Source: Escherichia coli
GTDB lineage: Bacteria > Pseudomonadota > Gammaproteobacteria > Enterobacterales > Enterobacteriaceae
Length of the DNA stretch: 64,000 nt
Direction: 5' to 3' (one strand)
NCBI RefSeq assembly: GCF_013122565.1
Contig: NZ_CP053258.1
Below the pieces are notes generated by a model, which did not search any database, was not told the origin of the DNA, and was given only the letters and a program-made list of their open reading frames with translations. How positions within the stretch are numbered: the stretch's first letter is position 1; each line of letters opens with the position of its first letter. Of the stretch, positions 3,123-56,941 are shown piece by piece. The translations under genes were made by a program, and so were the position numbers.

Positions 3123-4121
3123 ATGATGCAGGATTTGCGTCTGATATTAATCATTGTTGGCGCGATCGCCATAATCGCTTTACTGGTACATGGTTTCTGG
3201 ACCAGCCGTAAAGAACGATCTTCTATGTTCCGCGATCGGCCATTAAAACGAATGAAGTCAAAACGTGACGACGATTCTTATGACGAGGATGTCGAAGATG
3301 ATGAGGGCGTTGGTGAGGTTCGAGTTCACCGCGTGAATCATGCCCCGGCTAACGCCCAGGAGCATGAGGCTGCTCGTCCGTCGCCGCAACACCAGTACCA
3401 ACCGCCTTATGCGTCTGCCCAGCCCCGTCAACCGGTCCAGCAGCCGCCTGAAGCGCAGGTACCGCCGCAACATGCTCCGCGTCCAGCGCAGCCGGTGCAG
3501 CAACCCGTGCAGCAGCCTGCCTATCAGCCGCAGCCTGAACAGCCGTTGCAGCAGCCAGTTTCGCCACAGGTCGCATCAGCGCCGCAGCCAGTGCATTCAG
3601 CACCGCAATCGGCACAACAGGCTTTCCAGCCTGCAGAACCCGTAGCGGCACCACAGCCTGAGCCTGTAGTGGAACCGGCTCCAGTTATGGATAAACCGAA
3701 GCGCAAAGAAGCGGTGATTATCATGAACGTCGCGGCGCATCACGGTAGCGAGCTAAACGGTGAACTGCTTCTTAACAGCATTCAACAAGCGGGCTTCATT
3801 TTTGGCGATATGAATATTTACCATCGTCATCTTAGCCCGGATGGCAGCGGCCCGGCGTTATTTAGCCTGGCGAATATGGTGAAACCGGGAACCTTTGATC
3901 CTGAAATGAAGGATTTCACTACTCCGGGTGTCACTATCTTTATGCAGGTACCGTCTTACGGTGACGAGCTGCAGAACTTCAAGCTGATGCTGCAATCTGC
4001 GCAGCATATTGCCGATGAAGTGGGCGGTGTAGTGCTTGACGATCAGCGCCGTATGATGACTCCGCAGAAATTGCGCGAGTACCAGGACATCATCCGCGAA
4101 GTCAAAGACGCCAACGCCTGA
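3123..4121 (+). CDS. zipA: Cell division protein ZipA (FtsZ membrane anchor)
   Basis: ORF 3072-4121; start placed at internal [21 protein letters not shown] (N-terminal TM), P/Q-rich linker, C-terminal FtsZ-binding domain. Confidence 0.93.
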
Positions 4122-4150
4122 TACACTTAAGGCAAATTAACTCCTCTTCG

Positions 4151-4176
4151 AACCCCCGCTTGTCGGGGGTTTTTAG
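4151..4176 (+). terminator. Rho-independent terminator after zipA
   Basis: cccccg-cttgt-cggggg hairpin followed by tttt. Confidence 0.6.
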
Positions 4177-4182
4177 CATTGA

Positions 4183-6207
<2,025 letters not shown>

Positions 6208-6208
6208 G

Positions 6209-6427
6209 ATGGAAAAAGAGCAGCTGATTGAAATAGCCAATACGATAATGCCGTTTGGCAAATACAAAGGGCGTCGCTTAATCGACCTGCCGGAGGAGTA
6301 TCTGCTGTGGTTTGCCCGCAAAGATGAGTTCCCGGCAGGGAAGCTCGGTGAGCTAATGCAAATCACGCTGCTGATTAAAACCGAGGGGCTGACGCAACTG
6401 GTCCAGCCCCTGAAGCGTCCGCTTTAA
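6209..6427 (+). CDS. ypeB: DUF3820-family small protein YpeB
   Basis: ORF 6110-6427 overlaps the ligA 3' end; start placed at MEKEQLIEIANTIMPFGKYKGRRL one base after the ligA stop. Confidence 0.8.
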   Translation: MEKEQLIEIANTIMPFGKYKGRRLIDLPEEYLLWFARKDEFPAGKLGELMQITLLIKTEGLTQLVQPLKRPL

Positions 6428-7422
6428 GCTTTATCGGCGCTGCTTTCCTGCTGCGCCTGTAACTGTTCGGTCTGGCGTTTGTATCGACGCGCCAGCACCG
6501 CACAGACCATCAATTGGATCTGATGGAAAATCATCAGGGGCAGCACCATCATACCGATCACCGATGTGGGGAACAGAATGTTTGCCATCGGGATGCCATT
6601 TGCCAGACTCTTTTTCGAACCACAAAAGACGATAGTAATTTCATCTGCTTTATTGAAGCCCAGTCGGCGTGCCATAAAGACGTTAACTACAATCACGATA
6701 GCCAGAAGAACGCAGCTGGCCACCACGATAAACAGCAATGATCCCCAGCCAACTTTATGCCAGATACCATTAACGACGGCTTCGCTGAACGCTGTATAAA
6801 CCACCAACAGAATGGACGTCTGGTCAGTTTTCGCAATCCATTTTTTATTGCGCGACACCCAGTCACCAATCCACGGCCGGGAAAGATGCCCTAACACAAA
6901 CGGCAGCAACAGTTGCAGCATAATTTTACCGACCTGCTCAAGGCTGCCCCCTGCACCGTGAACATTCATCACCAGGCCAACCAACAATGGTGAAAGGAAA
7001 ATCCCCAGCAGGCTGGATGCCGACGCAGAACAAACCGCCGCCGCGACGTTACCGCCCGCCATTGACGTGAAGGCGATTGCAGACTGCACGGTCGCGGGGA
7101 GAATGCACAAGTAGAGAAAACCGGAGTAGAGCATCGGGTCGACATTTACCGGTTTCCACCAGGCAAACAGCACGCCCAGAATCGGAAACAGCACGAAGGT
7201 GCTGCACATTACCCACAAATGCAGTCGCCAGTGACCACCGCCAGCAATAATCGCCTCACGCGACAACTTCGCGCCGTGCATAAAGAACAGCAGGGCAATC
7301 GCTGCGGTGGTCAGATTTTCAAAGAAGGGGACGAAATCGCCTCTGGCCGGAAAGAAAGAGGCCAACAACACCACCGTGATCAGGGTTAAGGTGAAAGGAT
7401 CGAGGATACGAAAAAGTTTCAT
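6424..7422 (-). CDS. yfeH: Putative bile acid:Na+ symporter-family (BASS) transporter YfeH
   Basis: 332-aa polytopic membrane ORF MKLFRILDPFTLTLITVVLLASFFPARGDF... Confidence 0.88.
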   Translation of the reverse strand: MKLFRILDPFTLTLITVVLLASFFPARGDFVPFFENLTTAAIALLFFMHGAKLSREAIIAGGGHWRLHLWVMCSTFVLFPILGVLFAWWKPVNVDPMLYSGFLYLCILPATVQSAIAFTSMAGGNVAAAVCSASASSLLGIFLSPLLVGLVMNVHGAGGSLEQVGKIMLQLLLPFVLGHLSRPWIGDWVSRNKKWIAKTDQTSILLVVYTAFSEAVVNGIWHKVGWGSLLFIVVASCVLLAIVIVVNVFMARRLGFNKADEITIVFCGSKKSLANGIPMANILFPTSVIGMMVLPLMIFHQIQLMVCAVLARRYKRQTEQLQAQQESSADKA

Positions 7423-7465
7423 AAAGACTCCAGATGATCGATGCTTTCATTGTGCGTTGTTCTGA

Positions 7466-7494
7466 TTGATAAATAAAACTGAATTGCTTATCAA
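7466..7494. promoter_or_regulatory. Inverted repeat TTGATAA-N15-TTATCAA upstream of yfeH; candidate operator
   Basis: Palindromic arms read directly in sequence about 45-70 bp upstream of the yfeH start; function inferred. Confidence 0.25.
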
Positions 7495-8050
7495 TTTGTG
7501 CGCGAGGAGTGTGAGTGAGTTGCTCGCTCGCTTCGACTGGTTGGCAGAGCGGGGGAGGATATCCCGGATGAGACAAATAAGACGTTCGACAAGAGAATCA
7601 GGTGACTACAGAAAAAATCACAGGATGTTATTACTGCTGATGTTCATGTCGGTTTTCGCGTTATCAGAACTGGTTTTAGAACTGCTATTTAATCGATAAT
7701 GCCATTCTGCAGGAAAGCTTTACCTACTTTATTATTTGCGGTGTGGTAAAACCTGGTCACCAGAGGCAGGTTTAATACCAGACGCTGTCTTTTATCAGAT
7801 ATCCCATGTAAATAATAAATGCAATGAATATTAATTCATTATGTATTTATTTTGTGATTGTTTGGTGTTACTAGTTTGTTGGACAAATAACAACTCTAAC
7901 TAATACATAAACCTTGCATAGTGACAGAGTATCGATCTGAATGTTTTCAACATTGATATCAAATTGCAATTGATATCCGTGGTAAAAAGTATTGGTAAAT
8001 TTGATGAATTTCCGGATATTTAAAGGGGCGGCTCAAAGACGAAGGGGAAG

Positions 8051-9307
8051 ATGGTGAATCTAAAACTACAGTTAAAAGTTCTTTCATTTCTGCAATTCTT
8101 TTTGTGGGGAAGTTGGCTCAACACATTCGGTTCTTATATGTTTATCACGCTGCGTTTTAAGGGCGAAGATATAGGCGCAGTCTACAGTACACTGGGTATC
8201 GCAGCATTAATAACATCAACGTTATTTGGTATCGTGGCCGATAAATGGATTAGTGCTAAATGGATATATGCCGCTTGTCATTTATTTGGCGCGATAACAT
8301 TATTTATCGCAGCATCGGTTACCACGCCTTCGGCAATGTTCATTGTCATTTTACTTAACTCTCTTGTGTATATGCCAACACTCGGTTTGAGTAATACAAT
8401 TTCCTATTACCGCCTACAAACAGCGGGGATGGATATTGTGACAGAATTTCCGCCAATCCGTATCTGGGGCACGATTGGATTTATTGTCGCAATGTGGGCG
8501 GTTAGCCTGGCTGGTTTTGAATTAAGTCATATGCAATTATATATCGGTGCGGCGGCTTCATTAGGCTTGAGCCTGTTCACGTTGACTTTACCAACTGTAC
8601 CAGTGGCGAAATCTAACCAGGCGCAAGGAATGATAGATGTTCTCGGATTGCGTGCATTTACACTGTTTAAAAACAGCAAAATGGCGATTTTCTTTATCTT
8701 TGCCATGCTGCTCGGGGCAGAGTTACAAATTACCGGGATGTTTGGTAATACATTTCTCCACAGCTTTGAGAGCGTTCCAGAGTTTACCAATAGTTTTGTT
8801 GTTACCCATGCTTCTATTCTGTTATCAATTTCTCAGATATCCGAAGTCTGTTTCATTCTTGCCATTCCTTTTTTCCTGAAAAAATACGGTATCAAAAATG
8901 TCATGCTGATGAGCATGGTGGCCTGGATGCTGCGTTTTGGTTTATTCGCTTATGGCGATCCTTCATTCGGTGGTACCATTCTGTTAATTCTTTCGATGAT
9001 TGTTTATGGCTGTGCTTTTGACTTCTTCAATATATCTGGCTCGGTATTTGTTGAACAAGAAGTTGATCCATCGATTCGTAACAGCGCTCAGGGCGTTTTC
9101 CTGATGATGGCCAATGGTTTTGGTTGTATTCTGGGCGGTTTTATCAGTGGTAAAGTCGTCGATTATTTAACAACGGATGGCAATCCACAGTGGTCAACCA
9201 TTTGGCTGGTATTTGCCGGATATTCACTGGTTCTGGCTCTCGCATTTATGGTGTTGTTTAAATATAAACACAACGGTAACCCGACAACGTCCGGTCATTT
9301 CGCCTGA
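8051..9307 (+). CDS. Nucleoside:H+ symporter (NHS family), NupG/XapB paralogue
   Basis: 418-aa 12-TM ORF MVNLKLQLKVLSFLQFFLWGSWL...; by recollection closer to NupG than to the XapB encoded 2 kb downstream; AT-rich; GTG at 8054 is an alternative start. Confidence 0.85.
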   Translation: MVNLKLQLKVLSFLQFFLWGSWLNTFGSYMFITLRFKGEDIGAVYSTLGIAALITSTLFGIVADKWISAKWIYAACHLFGAITLFIAASVTTPSAMFIVILLNSLVYMPTLGLSNTISYYRLQTAGMDIVTEFPPIRIWGTIGFIVAMWAVSLAGFELSHMQLYIGAAASLGLSLFTLTLPTVPVAKSNQAQGMIDVLGLRAFTLFKNSKMAIFFIFAMLLGAELQITGMFGNTFLHSFESVPEFTNSFVVTHASILLSISQISEVCFILAIPFFLKKYGIKNVMLMSMVAWMLRFGLFAYGDPSFGGTILLILSMIVYGCAFDFFNISGSVFVEQEVDPSIRNSAQGVFLMMANGFGCILGGFISGKVVDYLTTDGNPQWSTIWLVFAGYSLVLALAFMVLFKYKHNGNPTTSGHFA

Positions 9308-9361: not shown

Positions 9362-10273
9362 ATGGCAAATCAATTGTATAACCAGTGTCGGGTTTATTGT
9401 GCACCCTGGCGATTAGATGCTTTAAATTTAAATGATATCATTGATCAATGGATTGACGAGGGGCTGTTGCCGCCCCTGATCCATACTTTTCTTCCATATC
9501 GCGATGATGCCGGTGCCTCCAGTGAAGAAGAGATTTTTGTTAACGATGTCGCGAATATGGATAACAGTGTTGGGGTTATCGGTTATTTCGATGGTGGAAC
9601 CTATGATTCCGGTTATGCATGGGCTTTAGGGATGCCTGTTCACCTGGTAACGACAGACTTTCTTATATGGGCAGCGGGGAATTCTTCAGAGTTTTATCCT
9701 ATAAGTAAGCTGATGAATTATGTGGCAAAAGTGGTTTCTGTGTCAGATTCCGATACCAGTATCAGCAATTATCGTGAACAAACCGACGATATCATCAAGC
9801 GTGCGTTGCAAATTTTTCAACAAAATTTAATCGCCGACTTCGGCACGACGATTAATCCAGCAGTACCGGTTACTCCATTGCCGATTGAGTATGACTACTA
9901 TATTGATCCTAACTTTATGTATACCGAACCCTCTCGGGACTTACTGGTGAAGATCAAAGATGCGATCATTAGTGCAGGTAAGACTTTCATCGTTGGCGAC
10001 AACATGAATGATATTGCGACTGATATTGATAACTTAAGAAAATCCAGACAGGCCATCTTTTATTCCGATACCTTTGAGCCGAATGTTGACACCGGCATTA
10101 TGAATGGTATTGCCTATGCATTAGGACAGCAATCGATTATTTATTGTAGCAAGCAACAAAAATATCAATCTGCGCTCGCGACAGATTATTTAAATTTAAT
10201 GATTACCTGGTCGTCAACGGTGGCGCATTCATTTGCGGAACTTGAAACATTGATTGGTAACACAGAAAAATAA
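9362..10273 (+). CDS. Hypothetical protein with two repeats of a nucleoside 2-deoxyribosyltransferase-like (SLOG-like) motif
   Basis: 303-aa ORF; motif VIGYFDGGTYDSGYAWALGMPVHLV in the first half and AIFYSDTFEPNVDTGIMNGIAYALGQQSIIY in the second; N-terminal VYCAPW resembles the NDT IYFGAGWF motif; family assignment by eye only. Confidence 0.4.
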   Translation: MANQLYNQCRVYCAPWRLDALNLNDIIDQWIDEGLLPPLIHTFLPYRDDAGASSEEEIFVNDVANMDNSVGVIGYFDGGTYDSGYAWALGMPVHLVTTDFLIWAAGNSSEFYPISKLMNYVAKVVSVSDSDTSISNYREQTDDIIKRALQIFQQNLIADFGTTINPAVPVTPLPIEYDYYIDPNFMYTEPSRDLLVKIKDAIISAGKTFIVGDNMNDIATDIDNLRKSRQAIFYSDTFEPNVDTGIMNGIAYALGQQSIIYCSKQQKYQSALATDYLNLMITWSSTVAHSFAELETLIGNTEK

Positions 10274-10285
10274 TAGTTAATTTTA

Positions 10286-10328
10286 CTGATTATCAGGTGA
10301 GTGATTGCCTGATAATCAGCTTTTTGTT
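10286..10328 (+). terminator. Rho-independent terminator after the 303-aa ORF
   Basis: Perfect 12-bp inverted repeat ctgattatcagg / cctgataatcag with 10-nt loop, followed by cttttt. Confidence 0.65.
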
Positions 10329-10501
10329 AGCCACCAAAGAAAAATATACTGCCGTTATATTTCTCTGCCGGGGAACGATATGATCGATTTCAAAATTATA
10401 TTGAATATCTCTGGAAAATGTATTGGTCACTCGCGACTTTTTCTCGCTATAAAAAAATGTGACTCAGATCTAACGCATAATGCTTATTACAAGGACTTGC
10501 C

Positions 10502-11335
10502 ATGACCCAATCTCATTTTTCACAAAACCCGTGGTATTGCGCAGATATCATTCGTCGTCATAAACCAGACTTTACCCCACGCGTTGCGTTTATTTTGGGT
10601 TCGGGACTGGGAGCGCTGGCTGAACAAATAGAAGACGCAGTTGCCATTTCTTATAGCGATTTGCCGGGGTTTCCGGTGAGCACCGTACACGGCCATGCAG
10701 GAGAGTTGGTCCTCGGCGTGCTTTCTGGTGTGCCTGTAGCCTGCATGAAAGGTCGCGGTCATTTTTATGAGGGCCGGGGAATGACTGTCATGACTGATGC
10801 TATTCGCACGTTCAAGTTGCTGGGCTGTGAATTGTTGTTCTGCACTAACGCTGCAGGTTCGCTTCGCCCGGAAGTAGGGGCGGGTAGTCTGGTTGCGCTG
10901 AAAGATCACATTAATACGATGCCAGGCACACCGATGACAGGCCTTAATGATGAGCGTTTTGGTGAACGTTTTTTCTCATTAGCGAATGCTTACGATGCTG
11001 ATTACCGCGCCGTTTTACAAACCGTCGCGCATGAAGAAGGTTTTCCGCTGACAGAAGGGGTTTTTGTTTCTTATCCGGGGCCGAACTTCGAAACGGCGGC
11101 AGAAATTCGCATGATGCAGCTGTTTGGTGGCGACGTAGTAGGTATGTCTGTAGTGCCTGAAGTGATTAGCGCACGTCATTGCGAAATGAAAGTCGTTGCC
11201 GTGTCAGCAATAACCAACATGGCGGAAGGCTTAAGCGATGTGAAATTGTCGCATGCCCAAACCCTGGCTGCAGCAGAGTTATCACGACAAAACTTTATTA
11301 ATTTGATTTGCGGATTCTTACGCAAAATCGCCTGA
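10502..11335 (+). CDS. xapA: Xanthosine phosphorylase (purine nucleoside phosphorylase II)
   Basis: 277-aa ORF MTQSHFSQNPWYCADIIRRHKPDFTPRVAFILGSGLG..., PNP/MTAP fold. Confidence 0.93.
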   Translation: MTQSHFSQNPWYCADIIRRHKPDFTPRVAFILGSGLGALAEQIEDAVAISYSDLPGFPVSTVHGHAGELVLGVLSGVPVACMKGRGHFYEGRGMTVMTDAIRTFKLLGCELLFCTNAAGSLRPEVGAGSLVALKDHINTMPGTPMTGLNDERFGERFFSLANAYDADYRAVLQTVAHEEGFPLTEGVFVSYPGPNFETAAEIRMMQLFGGDVVGMSVVPEVISARHCEMKVVAVSAITNMAEGLSDVKLSHAQTLAAAELSRQNFINLICGFLRKIA

Positions 11336-11392: not shown

Positions 11393-12640
11393 ATGAATAT
11401 CGCAACGCGTTTAAAGGTAATGTCTTTCTTACAATATTTTATCTGGGGGAGTTGGTTAGTTACCCTCGGATCTTACATGATAAACACCTTACATTTTACC
11501 GGGGCTGATGTCGGTATGGCATACAGTTCTAAAGGCATTGCGGCCATTATTATGCCAGCCATTATGGGCATTATTGCCGATAAATGGTTACGGGCTGAAC
11601 GTACCTATATGCTGTGTCACTTAATTTGTGCCGGGGTGCTTTTTTATGCCGCCTCCGTAACTGAACCGAATATGATGTTCTGGGTGATGTTGCTTAACGC
11701 GATGGCTTTCATGCCCACGATTGCGTTATCCAACAGTGTTTCCTATTCGTGCCTGGCGCAGGCCGGATTAGACCCAGTCACCAGTTTTCCGCCAATCCGT
11801 GTTTATGGCACCGTGGGATTTATTGTCGCAATGTGGCTGGTGAGTTTATTGCATCTGGAGTTAAGTAGTGTGCAGTTGTATATCGCTTCTGGAGCATCTT
11901 TAGTGTTAGCGATCTATGCATTAACATTACCGAAAATTCCAGTGGCGGAACATAAAGCCAGTACGACGCTTTCCAGTAAATTAGGCCTGGATGCGTTTGT
12001 GTTATTTAAAAATCCGCGTATGGCGATTTTCTTTTTATTTGCTATGTTATTAGGTGCGGTACTGCAAATTACTAACGTTTTTGGTAATCCTTTCCTGCAT
12101 GACTTTGCCCGCAATCTTGAGTTTGCTGATAGCTTCGTGGTGAAATATCCATCCATTTTGCTCTCGGTTTCACAAATGGCGGAAGTCGGCTTCATTCTTA
12201 CCATTCCATTCTTCCTGAAGCGTTTTGGCATCAAAACCGTCATGTTGATGAGTATGGTAGCGTGGACGTTACGCTTTGGCTTCTTTGCCTTTGGCGACCC
12301 ATCGGCAGGTGGCTTTGTATTATTGTTGTTGTCGATGATTGTGTATGGCTGCGCGTTCGACTTTTTCAATATCTCCGGTTCAGTGTTTGTCGAGCAAGAA
12401 GTGGACTCCAGGATCCGCGCCAGCGCTCAGGGTTTATTTATGACTATGGTCAATGGCGTTGGGGCGTGGATTGGTTCTCTTCTGAGTGGCATGGCAGTTG
12501 ACTATTTCACGGTTGATGGCGTGAAAGACTGGCAAACCATCTGGCTAGTATTTGCTGCGTATGCACTGGCCTTAGCGGTGATTTTTGCCCTGTTCTTCCG
12601 TTATAAGCATGAACCTGATAAATGGCGCAGAAATCATTGA
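11393..12640 (+). CDS. xapB: Xanthosine permease (NHS family)
   Basis: 415-aa ORF MNIATRLKVMSFLQYFIWGSWLVTLGSYMINTLHFTG... directly downstream of xapA. Confidence 0.92.
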   Translation: MNIATRLKVMSFLQYFIWGSWLVTLGSYMINTLHFTGADVGMAYSSKGIAAIIMPAIMGIIADKWLRAERTYMLCHLICAGVLFYAASVTEPNMMFWVMLLNAMAFMPTIALSNSVSYSCLAQAGLDPVTSFPPIRVYGTVGFIVAMWLVSLLHLELSSVQLYIASGASLVLAIYALTLPKIPVAEHKASTTLSSKLGLDAFVLFKNPRMAIFFLFAMLLGAVLQITNVFGNPFLHDFARNLEFADSFVVKYPSILLSVSQMAEVGFILTIPFFLKRFGIKTVMLMSMVAWTLRFGFFAFGDPSAGGFVLLLLSMIVYGCAFDFFNISGSVFVEQEVDSRIRASAQGLFMTMVNGVGAWIGSLLSGMAVDYFTVDGVKDWQTIWLVFAAYALALAVIFALFFRYKHEPDKWRRNH

Positions 12641-12716: not shown

Positions 12717-13607
12717 ATGATTATGGAAGGTACGCATCGTATTGATCTCAAGTTATTGCGCTATTTTCTTGCGGTCGCAGAAGAACTTCACTTTGGGCGG
12801 GCCGCTGCGCGGCTGAATATGTCGCAACCGCCATTAAGTATTCATATTAAAGATCTGGAGCAACAGTTGGGCACGTTGCTGTTCGTTCGTCATTCGCGCA
12901 GTGTGGCGCTCACTCATGCGGGGAAAATTTTACTGGAAGAGTCACGTCGTCTGCTGGCTAATGCCAGTCAGGCGTTGGCACGAGTAGAACAGATCGGTCG
13001 TGGTGAGGCAGGGCGCATTGAGCTGGGCGTGGTGGGAACCGCAATGTGGGGGCGAATGCGTCCGGTAATGCGGCGGTTTTTGAAAGAGTGCCCTAATGTT
13101 CATGTCTCATTTCGTGAAAAATCACCAGGGATGCAAATGGCATTGCTCGAGCGGCGGGAGCTGGACGCGGGTATCTGGCGGATGGCAATTGAACCCACGA
13201 CGGGATTTACCAGTCTGCGATTACACGAATCTTCGTTTTTGGTGGCGATACCGGAAGATCATCATCTGGCTTGCGAAAACGCTATCCCGTTAATGGCATT
13301 ACGCAATGAATACTTTGTGACGCTGCCATCGGTCCATTCCGACTGGGCGTTTTTACAGCGTGTCTGTCAGCAGGCAGGGTTTTCACCGATGATCGTTCGG
13401 GAGGCCGTAGAACCGCAAACCGTACTGGCGATGATCAGTATGGGGCTGGGTGTGACATTAATGGCAGATAGCTATGCCCAAATGAGCTGGCCGGGTGTGG
13501 TATTTCGTCCACTCGAGGAACGTATTCCAGCAGATTTGTATATTGTTTATGAACAGCAACAGGCAACACCAGCGCTGGAGAGATTAGTTAATGCTTTGAT
13601 AGCATGA
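12717..13607 (+). CDS. xapR: LysR-type transcriptional activator of xapAB
   Basis: 296-aa ORF with N-terminal LysR HTH (LKLLRYFLAVAEELHFGRAAARLNMSQPPLS); start could be the second Met at 12723. Confidence 0.9.
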   Translation: MIMEGTHRIDLKLLRYFLAVAEELHFGRAAARLNMSQPPLSIHIKDLEQQLGTLLFVRHSRSVALTHAGKILLEESRRLLANASQALARVEQIGRGEAGRIELGVVGTAMWGRMRPVMRRFLKECPNVHVSFREKSPGMQMALLERRELDAGIWRMAIEPTTGFTSLRLHESSFLVAIPEDHHLACENAIPLMALRNEYFVTLPSVHSDWAFLQRVCQQAGFSPMIVREAVEPQTVLAMISMGLGVTLMADSYAQMSWPGVVFRPLEERIPADLYIVYEQQQATPALERLVNALIA

Positions 13608-55788: not shown

Positions 55789-56005
55789 ATCTCACCTTCC
55801 CCTGTGATTAACCTGATGATATTGGACAAAAAAACAACGCAGGCTGACAAACGATAAAATTTGCCTTTCACATGAGATAAATTGCATCAAGGGAGTGATT
55901 TACATCTAAAAATGAAGGTGAATTGCGATATGGTTCACTTTAGCTCACCTTACAGCTGAAATTTTGCCGCTATTTTTTTACACTTAAGAGAAAAATGAGG
56001 TGAGT

Positions 56006-56941
56006 ATGGAACCCCTTCGTGAAATAAGAAATCGACTGCTTAACGGCTGGCAACTATCAAAAATGCATACTTTTGAAGTGGCTGCCAGGCATCAGTCCTT
56101 CGCCCTGGCGGCAGAGGAATTGTCGCTGAGCCCCAGTGCGGTAAGTCACCGTATCAATCAGCTGGAAGAAGAATTGGGTATTCAGTTGTTTGTTCGTTCC
56201 CATCGCAAAGTGGAATTAACGCACGAGGGGAAACGCGTTTATTGGGCGCTAAAATCGTCGCTGGATACCCTGAACCAGGAAATTCTTGATATCAAAAATC
56301 AGGAGTTATCGGGAACGTTAACTCTGTATTCCCGGCCCTCTATCGCTCAATGCTGGTTGGTGCCCGCATTAGGTGACTTTACACGCCGCTATCCGTCTAT
56401 TTCGCTCACCGTGCTCACTGGTAATGACAATGTCAATCTGCAACGTGCCGGAATCGATTTGGCAATCTACTTTGATGACGCGCCGTCAGCGCAACTGACT
56501 CATCACTTTCTGATGGATGAAGAAATCCTGCCTGTATGTAGCCCGGAATACGCTCAAAGACATGCTTTAACCAACACGATAATTAACCTGCGCCACTGTA
56601 CGTTGCTCCATGACAGACAGGCATGGAGCAACGACTCCGGAACGGATGAATGGCATAGTTGGGCGCAACATTATGAGGTTAATTTGCCGACATCTTCTGG
56701 AATTGGCTTTGATCGCTCTGATTTAGCCGTTATCGCCGCAATGAATCATGTTGGGGTGGCGATGGGAAGAAAACGCCTGGTACAAAAAAGGCTTGCCAGT
56801 GGTGAGCTCGTCGCGCCGTTTGGCGATATGACGGTGAAATGCCATCAGCATTATTACATCACCACATTACCGGGCAGGCAGTGGCCAAAAATTGAAGCGT
56901 TTATTACCTGGTTAAGAGAACAGGTAAAAACCACTTCATAA
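56006..56941 (+). CDS. dsdC: LysR-type activator of dsdXA
   Basis: ORF 56000-56941; start placed at MEPLREIRN (MSMEPL at 56000 also possible); LysR HTH FEVAARHQSFALAAEELSLSPSAVSHRI. Confidence 0.92.
   Translation: MEPLREIRNRLLNGWQLSKMHTFEVAARHQSFALAAEELSLSPSAVSHRINQLEEELGIQLFVRSHRKVELTHEGKRVYWALKSSLDTLNQEILDIKNQELSGTLTLYSRPSIAQCWLVPALGDFTRRYPSISLTVLTGNDNVNLQRAGIDLAIYFDDAPSAQLTHHFLMDEEILPVCSPEYAQRHALTNTIINLRHCTLLHDRQAWSNDSGTDEWHSWAQHYEVNLPTSSGIGFDRSDLAVIAAMNHVGVAMGRKRLVQKRLASGELVAPFGDMTVKCHQHYYITTLPGRQWPKIEAFITWLREQVKTTS

Follow-up and report, generated by a model that had tools for sequence, protein, structure and literature searches.

The stretch of Escherichia coli chromosome considered here (64,000 nucleotides of contig NZ_CP053258.1, assembly GCF_013122565.1; hereafter the window) harbours two adjoining genes between yfeH and xapA. 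The first specifies a paralogue of the nucleoside:H+ symporter NupG, the second a protein resembling nucleoside 2'-deoxyribosyltransferases (NDT-like), and the two form an operon. The pair is rare: of 5426 complete E. coli genomes, 15 have it. It is also found in Escherichia albertii and, at an unrelated locus, in Citrobacter. Further downstream lie xapA, xapB and xapR. The last encodes a LysR-type activator 79% identical to its K-12 counterpart over 292 residues, the N-terminal DNA-binding region being almost unchanged, and is the sole LysR gene at the locus. An earlier inspection of the letters alone, referred to below as the sequence-only reading, drew attention to the 350 bp upstream of the permease gene (7700-8050) and proposed that CRP, CytR and DeoR might act there. 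The analysis reported here points to a different regulator: a 72-bp module at 7952-8023 is likely to be a XapR (LysR-type) activator-dependent promoter of the xapA type, which would drive the NupG-paralogue and NDT-like operon.

The AT-richness ascribed to the region was readily confirmed, as its parts range from 26 to 35% in G+C content: 34.5% at 7700-8050, 27.9% at 7798-7951 and 26.4% at 7952-8023, versus 47.9% for the whole window. The two strings that had been quoted are likewise present, tgttttcaacattgatatcaaattgcaattgatatc from position 7942 (7942-7978) and tttgtgattgtttggtgtta from position 7851 (7851-7870). The repeat within the former is a 9-mer, ATTGATATC, located at 7952-7960 and 7969-7977 with a start-to-start distance of 17 bp. 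It overlaps two perfect palindromes, TTGATATCAA (7953-7962) and AATTGCAATT (7962-7971), and falls within a 19-nt imperfect dyad (7944-7962 and 7970-7988). When the region was shuffled 2000 times with its dinucleotides preserved, a 9-nt direct repeat within 30 nt arose in 81 of the shuffles (4%) and a 10-bp palindrome in 651 (33%); taken alone, the repeat is only weakly unusual. The window contains 13 copies of TTGATATC, where shuffles would lead one to expect 2.5, an excess that GAT-ATC codon usage may cause. One other copy was examined, at 56286-56295, and resides in coding DNA, inside an open reading frame spanning 56000-56941. None of the copies outside the module scores with the XapR matrix described below. 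A search of Rfam with 7400-8150 at E <= 1 returned nothing, neither a known leader nor a small RNA.

The two ATTGATATC copies open the 72-bp module, which matches without gaps the promoter architecture of 57 xapA genes from Enterobacterales. Eighty xapA loci from different species were compared: 55 share the ungapped architecture, and the addition of the K-12 and window xapA promoters brings the set to 57 modules. The shared design begins with ATYRATA-N9-TATYRAT, a pair of ATYRAT hexamers spaced by 17 bp and bearing the T-N11-A signature of LysR-type sites; 20 nt on is a box, AAAnnGTATTGG (AAAnn(G/A)TATTGG), and 20 nt further a -10 element (TATAA). In the permease module the distal site is in register with the 57 xapA promoters and attains a sub-score of 19.0 bits, reached by 1.6e-5 of window positions. 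Its two ATTGAT hexamers form the cores of the TTGATATC repeats. As judged from this alignment, the two TTGATATC repeats of the sequence-only reading are the two half-sites of an xapA-type (XapR, LysR-family) distal site. Their interpretation as an operator is thereby upheld in part: they belong to a conserved operator-like element, which matches the xapA-type module and not an operator for CRP, CytR or DeoR.

The proximal box begins 15 nt after the second hexamer (20 nt start to start), a spacing identical in all 57 xapA modules; conservation of the columns AAA..GTATTGG is 90% or higher in that set, and the sub-score of 15.6 bits is in the top 1.6e-5 of window positions. The -10 segment, GGATATTTAA at 8014-8023, agrees with four of the six conserved columns (family G.TATAA), with -1.5 bits and a rank in the top 1% of window positions. 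The hexamer GATATT would provide a usable -10, displaced by 2 nt from the aligned hexamer and by 1 nt from the conserved -10 columns of the family. On the basis of the ungapped -10 alignment to xapA promoters, transcription is predicted to start at ~8027-8029, ~25 nt before the permease start codon. With a start at ~8028, predicted in this way, the distal site would be centred at ~-64 and the box would extend from ~-44 to -32. The module ends 27 nt before the permease start codon. The parts of the module and the surrounding features are listed in Table 1.

Table 1. Features of the yfeH-xapR locus in the window and mirrored modules in other genomes (L numbers designate loci in other genomes).
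Feature	Position	Strand	Remarks
zipA			left part of locus in window, Escherichia chromosome
ligA	4192-6207		left part of locus
ypeB			left part of locus
yfeH	6424-7422	-	left part of locus
yfeH-to-symporter gap			628 bp
yfeN remnants (Tsx/OmpK-family porin)	7676-7797	-	C-terminal end (stop codon complement 7676-7678) and N-terminal end, joined at ~7740-7750
AT-rich spacer	7798-7951		poorly conserved; holds TGTGA (7853-7857) and a weak DeoR-like palindrome (7877-7892)
Putative distal (regulatory) site	7952-7975	+	ATTGAT hexamers 7952-7957 and 7969-7974; T-N11-A pair T7957/A7969
Putative proximal box AAAAAGTATTGGT	7984-7996	+	overlaps predicted -35 (GGTAAA, 7994-7999)
Predicted -10	8015-8022	+	GATATT (8015-8020) or TATTTA (8017-8022, aligned with family TATAA)
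Shine-Dalgarno-like AAGGGG	8042-8047	+	read from sequence; precedes permease start ATG 8051 or GTG 8054
NupG-paralogue nucleoside:H+ symporter gene	8051-9307	+	Pfam Nuc_H_symport, E = 2e-165; operon gene 1
NDT-like gene	9362-10273	+	Pfam PF05014; operon gene 2
Second module copy (xapA promoter of the window)	10383-10454	+	top window match; aligns to permease module
xapA	10502-11335
xapB	11393-12640
xapR	12717-13607	+	intact LysR-type activator gene; presumed trans-acting factor
Mirrored module, L012 (K-12, NC_000913.3)	5990-6061	+	yfeN direction; genome coordinates 2524989-2525060
Mirrored module, L015	4819-4890
Mirrored module, L030	1256-1327
Mirrored module, L037	4671-4742

The resemblance to xapA promoters extends well beyond the repeat. 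When the DNA upstream of the permease was aligned locally with the K-12 yfeN-xapA intergenic region, a 49-nt alignment with z = 9.5 was obtained; the upstream region of the xapA gene in the window gave z = 5.2, and in both cases 0 of 1000 shuffles reached the score. A 72-column weight matrix (61 bits) was built exclusively from 52 non-Escherichia xapA promoters in 22 clusters, and both strands of the window were scanned with it. Among the 128,000 positions there are two outliers only, the xapA promoter of the window itself (47.2 bits) and the permease module (31.4 bits); the third best position scores -19.8. All matches of at least 0 bits in 952 kb of loci are xapA promoters, permease-operon promoters or mirrored modules located before yfeN. 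Twenty-four columns are at least 90% conserved in the 57 xapA modules, and the permease module of the window agrees with 21 of them. A blastn search with 7809-8050 ('distant' setting) was too insensitive to detect the K-12 xapA promoter; against the 5426 E. coli genomes, blastn with this segment recovered the 15 genomes bearing the island together with one short AT-rich chance match.

The module is also better preserved than the AT-rich DNA beside it. It is 97% identical in E. coli IAI39, 96% in a third E. coli lineage (L013) and 82% in E. albertii, where the adjacent spacer shows 69%, 70% and 66% identity, respectively; the distal site is 100% identical in IAI39 and L013 and 83% in E. albertii. 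The E. albertii module has undergone 13 substitutions, including the loss of the second exact TTGATATC, yet scores 32.9 bits. In Citrobacter the permease and NDT-like operon is placed between unrelated genes and is endowed with a module of its own, which scores 32.7 bits and matches 24 of 24 conserved columns, with an overall identity of 51% to the window module and surrounding DNA that is unrelated (z = -0.8). The Citrobacter operon has a 235-nt leader that contains no open reading frame and shows no similarity to Escherichia upstream DNA; an apparent resemblance of this leader to 7809-7950 of the window in a MAFFT alignment was rejected (z = -0.8).

The occurrence of the module follows that of XapR. 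It is found at 52 of 52 xapA loci that have a XapR orthologue (at least 62% identity) and at none of 25 whose closest LysR relative shows 36-43% identity, one of these being without a LysR match in the available sequence. Three further module-bearing loci have no XapR match in available sequence that ends soon after xapB. Seven loci, from Kluyvera, Hafnia, Pluralibacter and others, contain xapA homologues 67-70% identical, and their XapR relatives are only 39-42% identical. These loci display a related distal site, ATCAATAC-N7-ATATCAAT, with a different proximal box (..AATTGGATTGGCAATC), and by sequence comparison their xapA upstream element is a diverged sister operator.

Such drift in specificity, seen at distant xapA loci whose LysR relatives reach 36-43% identity and which combine a related distal site with another box, lends some credit to the view that another LysR-type regulator, either a XapR paralogue or a HusR/YnfL-like protein, binds the module in response to a ligand other than xanthosine. 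In the same direction, HusR also binds the K-12 xapA-yfeN spacer (PMC12844172) and the Citrobacter operon is unlinked to xapR. This alternative is nevertheless very unlikely. The window module possesses the GTATTGG box that tracks XapR orthologues, and at the locus xapR has no LysR competitor. The two candidate HusR sequences of K-12 fall outside the conserved XapR blocks, and one of them is in the -35/-10 spacer, which is different here. As for Citrobacter, the LysR gene adjoining the island was considered as a possible XapR and rejected, since its product is only 27% identical to XapR.

In K-12, xanthosine induces XapR to activate xapAB from two sites, of which one partly overlies the -35 and the other is farther upstream; once the upstream site is removed, the response is nearly lost (PMC7205307). 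LysR-type regulators generally employ a T-N11-A regulatory site together with activation sites near the -35 (PMC11495319). In the 'sliding dimer' geometry of such promoters, the regulatory site is expected near -65 and the activation site over the -35, counted from the transcription start. Because of this two-site organization and of the LysR geometry, the two conserved blocks of the module fit the XapR scheme. By analogy with LysR-type regulators and with the K-12 xapAB promoter, on which the proposed mechanism rests, a XapR tetramer would occupy the distal site and the proximal box over a poor -35 and, once xanthosine is bound, would enable RNA polymerase to use the weak -10 (GATATT/TATTTA). 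The window would then contain two tandem XapR-type promoters, one before the permease and NDT-like pair and one before xapA-xapB. The roles of XapR as the binder and of xanthosine as the inducer are suggested by the position of the blocks and by their co-occurrence with XapR.

The likeness to the K-12 xapAB promoter is close. Both show the pair of ATYRAT hexamers at a distance of 17 bp, including T-N11-A, and the AAAnnGTATTGG box 20 nt on, followed after another 20 nt by the -10, which is only predicted in the window. The orientation agrees, and the distance from box to ATG is 62 nt in the window, as against 64-133 nt in xapA promoters. They differ in the genes that they serve, xapA-xapB in K-12 and presumably the NupG paralogue and NDT-like gene here, in the weaker -10 of the window site (TATTT) and in matrix score (31 bits versus 71). 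In addition, the second half-site in the window reads AATTGAT, so that the hexamers form a direct repeat, whereas those of K-12 xapAB are inverted. A comparison with LysR-type promoters such as those of BenM/CatM (ATAC-N7-GTAT; PMC11495319) reveals the same upstream T-N11-A site with partial dyad symmetry, the same site of lower symmetry reaching the -35, and a poor -35 consistent with activator dependence. Here the regulator gene is not divergent from the promoter: xapR lies ~4.7 kb downstream of the permease promoter on the same strand. The positions of the window sites, moreover, are counted from a predicted start.

The regulators named by the sequence-only reading were CRP, CytR and DeoR, on the model of K-12 nupG. 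Under this alternative CRP would activate, and CytR and/or DeoR would repress, through TTGCAA/TTGATATC and TGTGA. The product is indeed 74% identical to NupG, and the region does hold a TTGCAA (7964-7969), a CytR octamer with one mismatch (7818-7825) and a DeoR-like palindrome (7877-7892). A scan for the three regulators, based on counts of mismatches to the consensus and not on curated weight matrices, gave no matches above background. For CRP, the window contains 209 matches with up to three mismatches, against 234 expected from shuffles; the best core in 7809-8050 has 3 mismatches out of 10, and 51% of 242-bp window tiles equal it. For CytR, 19% of such tiles do as well as 7809-8050. The TGTGA at 7853-7857, taken for a CRP half-site, did not stand up to scrutiny: it has no second half-site, being more than three mismatches away from TGTGA-N6-TCACA, the DNA around it is the most divergent of the region (66-70% identity), and IAI39 has TGTAA in its place. 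The DeoR operator consensus is a 16-bp palindrome, TGTTAGAA.TTCTAACA; the best match, at 7877-7892, agrees at 11 of 16 positions, is equalled in 6% of tiles and is kept in neither IAI39 nor E. albertii.

CytR cassettes depend on CRP sites at their flanks, paired CytR half-sites take the form TGCAA-N2-3-TTGCA or octamer repeats, and TTGCAA is one published form of the CytR core (PMC3454398). Cassettes of the CRP-CytR-CRP type, as at nupG, deoP2, udp, cdd and tsx, have one CRP site (TGTGA-N6-TCACA) at least and mostly two. No flanking CRP sites were found in the region by the consensus scan, and no CytR partner was found at the published spacings of N2-3 or N10-13; there are only isolated near-matches, at 7963-7970 and at three scattered positions. 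The single TTGCAA is located in the variable spacer of the putative XapR site and is kept neither in E. albertii nor in xapA modules. Neither E. albertii nor IAI39 has kept the TGTGA, the TTGCAA or the DeoR-like palindrome. As a positive control, the nupG control region of K-12 yielded a CRP core with one mismatch and, by eye, two TTTGCAA repeats, and scores -41 with the XapR matrix. The K-12 nupG promoter (CRP-CytR-CRP plus DeoR) controls a homologous permease, with 74% identity between the products, but the window region has no similarity to it (z = 0.5) and lacks the CRP site and the paired CytR half-sites. The expectation that the control set would be distinct from that of K-12 nupG is therefore vindicated, and nupG-like control of the operon by CRP, CytR and DeoR is extremely improbable.

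The left part of the flagged span has a different origin. Two ends of a yfeN gene, coding for a Tsx/OmpK-family porin, are joined there, following a 642-bp internal deletion, and the start codon has been lost (CAT to TAT). E. coli IAI39 has at this place (L002, 4262-5029) an intact 255-aa porin gene divergent to the permease gene; the product is recognized by Pfam Channel_Tsx and is the orthologue of K-12 YfeN, with 86% amino-acid identity. Window positions 7423-7740 align to 4024-4331 of the IAI39 locus and 7742-8050 to 4974-5282, and a tblastn search located a yfeN remnant match at 7695-7748. Thus yfeN is a pseudogene in the window, and ~100 bp of the flagged span (7700-7797) are pseudogene remnant, not regulatory DNA. 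As 7676-7797 is accounted for in this way, the real control region is reduced to ~7798-8050; of the 350 bp originally claimed as upstream region, this portion is retained as control DNA and 7700-7797 is given over to the dead yfeN ends. By alignment, yfeN is intact in IAI39, CE10 and L013, and E. coli LHM10-1 has the same deletion. In E. albertii the same short gap (~620 bp) is present and no porin gene is called.

The identification of the first operon gene as a NupG-like paralogue proved correct, its product being 74% identical to K-12 NupG and 61% to XapB. Of the two possible start codons, GTG 8054 is favoured by the NupG alignment and by the 417-aa RefSeq annotation in related strains, IAI39 among them. 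In the second gene, DNA and protein alignments reveal an 18-bp in-frame deletion at ~9613, between GGTTnTGCATGGG direct repeats, that removes the residues GCAWEV. The Gly and Glu of this motif are invariant in 12 of 12 full-length homologues aligned. WP_089601685 is an example of an intact NDT-like protein. By analogy with nucleoside 2'-deoxyribosyltransferases, the catalytic nucleophile of the intact protein is probably Glu88, and the enzyme of the window strain is probably inactive, judging from its sequence. A model of an intact homologue consists of two repeated alpha/beta halves (predicted local distance difference test score, pLDDT, 80; predicted template-modelling score, pTM, 0.86). Foldseek matched it to nucleoside 2'-deoxyribosyltransferase structures over ~135-170 of 309 residues, with a template-modelling score (TM-score) of ~0.6 relative to the target. 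In an alignment inspected by eye, the second half has Asn or Gln at the position of the motif Glu of the first half. The family is tiny, with 26 clusters among 5.8 billion proteins, and no relative in the PDB was found by sequence. Distant members (43-50% identity) adjoin genes for a DeoR-family regulator, deoC, a purine nucleoside phosphorylase and an ABC sugar transporter.

Several observations weigh against a functional XapR-type promoter before the permease operon. None of the true xapA promoters, at 38-79 bits, scores as low as the module (31.4 bits), the match to the -10 is weak (TATTT versus TATAA, -1.5 bits), and column 17, in the dyad of the distal site, has A where the family has T. 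A generic scan for sigma-70 promoters and terminators detected no promoter on the plus strand and no terminator. The geometry is not uniform, as the Citrobacter module (L003, 4266-4337) is located 235 nt before the permease ATG (4578). Furthermore, the conserved blocks are assigned to XapR by position and co-occurrence. Finally, the operon is decaying in the window strain, with a dead yfeN and a deleted NDT-like motif, and the promoter may no longer matter there.

Some of these features would also be expected of a relic, that is, a copy of the xapA promoter left by the rearrangement that placed the permease operon between yfeN and xapA and unused now; the operon would then have its transcription start at some other place or be silent, for example in AT-rich DNA bound by H-NS. 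The weak -10 and a score below that of any xapA promoter speak for such an origin, as do the 26-28% G+C content, typical of acquired DNA, the damage to yfeN and to the NDT-like gene, and the restriction of the island to 15 of 5426 E. coli genomes. A relic would not, on the other hand, be expected to be better conserved than its flanks (97% versus 69%), nor to keep its score in E. albertii despite 13 changes. The divergent Citrobacter module retains all 24 conserved columns before the same operon at another locus, and no alternative promoter is found in the 27 nt between module and start codon. On balance the relic is unlikely, and an active XapR-dependent promoter remains the preferred interpretation.

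In genomes of the K-12 type, yfeN is immediately preceded by a mirrored XapR-type module (18-27.5 bits), which is separated from the xapA module by 2 bp (Table 1). Loci of the island type are devoid of it: no mirrored module was found on the yfeN side in the window or in IAI39, where the best scores are -32 and -30 bits, respectively. An origin of the K-12 arrangement by recombination between two module copies was considered, and the module identities of 58-67% do not settle the matter. Going by the mirrored modules, the uncharacterized Tsx-like porin YfeN may be a XapR target in K-12-type genomes. The architecture of the module is of a type already known from K-12 xapAB and LysR-type promoters; no paper was found in the literature that places either the permease operon or yfeN under XapR, and both are unreported candidate targets. 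It is conceivable, if not quite probable, that the XapR regulon reaches beyond xapAB to the permease and the two-half NDT-like enzyme in some Escherichia and Citrobacter, and to YfeN in K-12-type genomes, with porin, permease and enzyme together serving as a route for xanthosine or a related (deoxy)nucleoside. If true, a wider regulon would assign roles both to yfeN and to a new family of enzymes.

For the locus itself, the guess of CRP, CytR and DeoR control is replaced by a specific, testable assignment, in which the accessory NupG paralogue would belong to the xanthosine (XapR) circuit and not to general nucleoside catabolism. The comparison also defines XapR-type promoters across species, by 24 near-invariant columns within 72 bp, and this definition can serve in the annotation of XapR targets. 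The consequences are modest and concern the annotation of a regulon, together with a clue to what a rare NDT-like enzyme may act on; the kind of mechanism is not new.

Two minor observations concern the downstream part of the locus. The N-terminus of xapA and its 5' leader differ in the window from those of K-12 (MTQSHFSQNPWY versus MSQVQFSHNPLF), and the encoded XapA is 98% identical to that of E. coli SCPM-O-B-8794 and 96% to that of E. albertii. Since these identities are so high and that of XapR to its K-12 counterpart is 79%, it appears that the xap locus in its entirety is a divergent allele common to E. albertii-like lineages. Between the stop codon of the NDT-like gene and the xapA module, within 10274-10330, is a perfect 14-nt inverted repeat, ctgattatcaggtgagtgattgcctgataatcag, which could possibly act as a terminator or an insulator between two tandem XapR-type transcription units.

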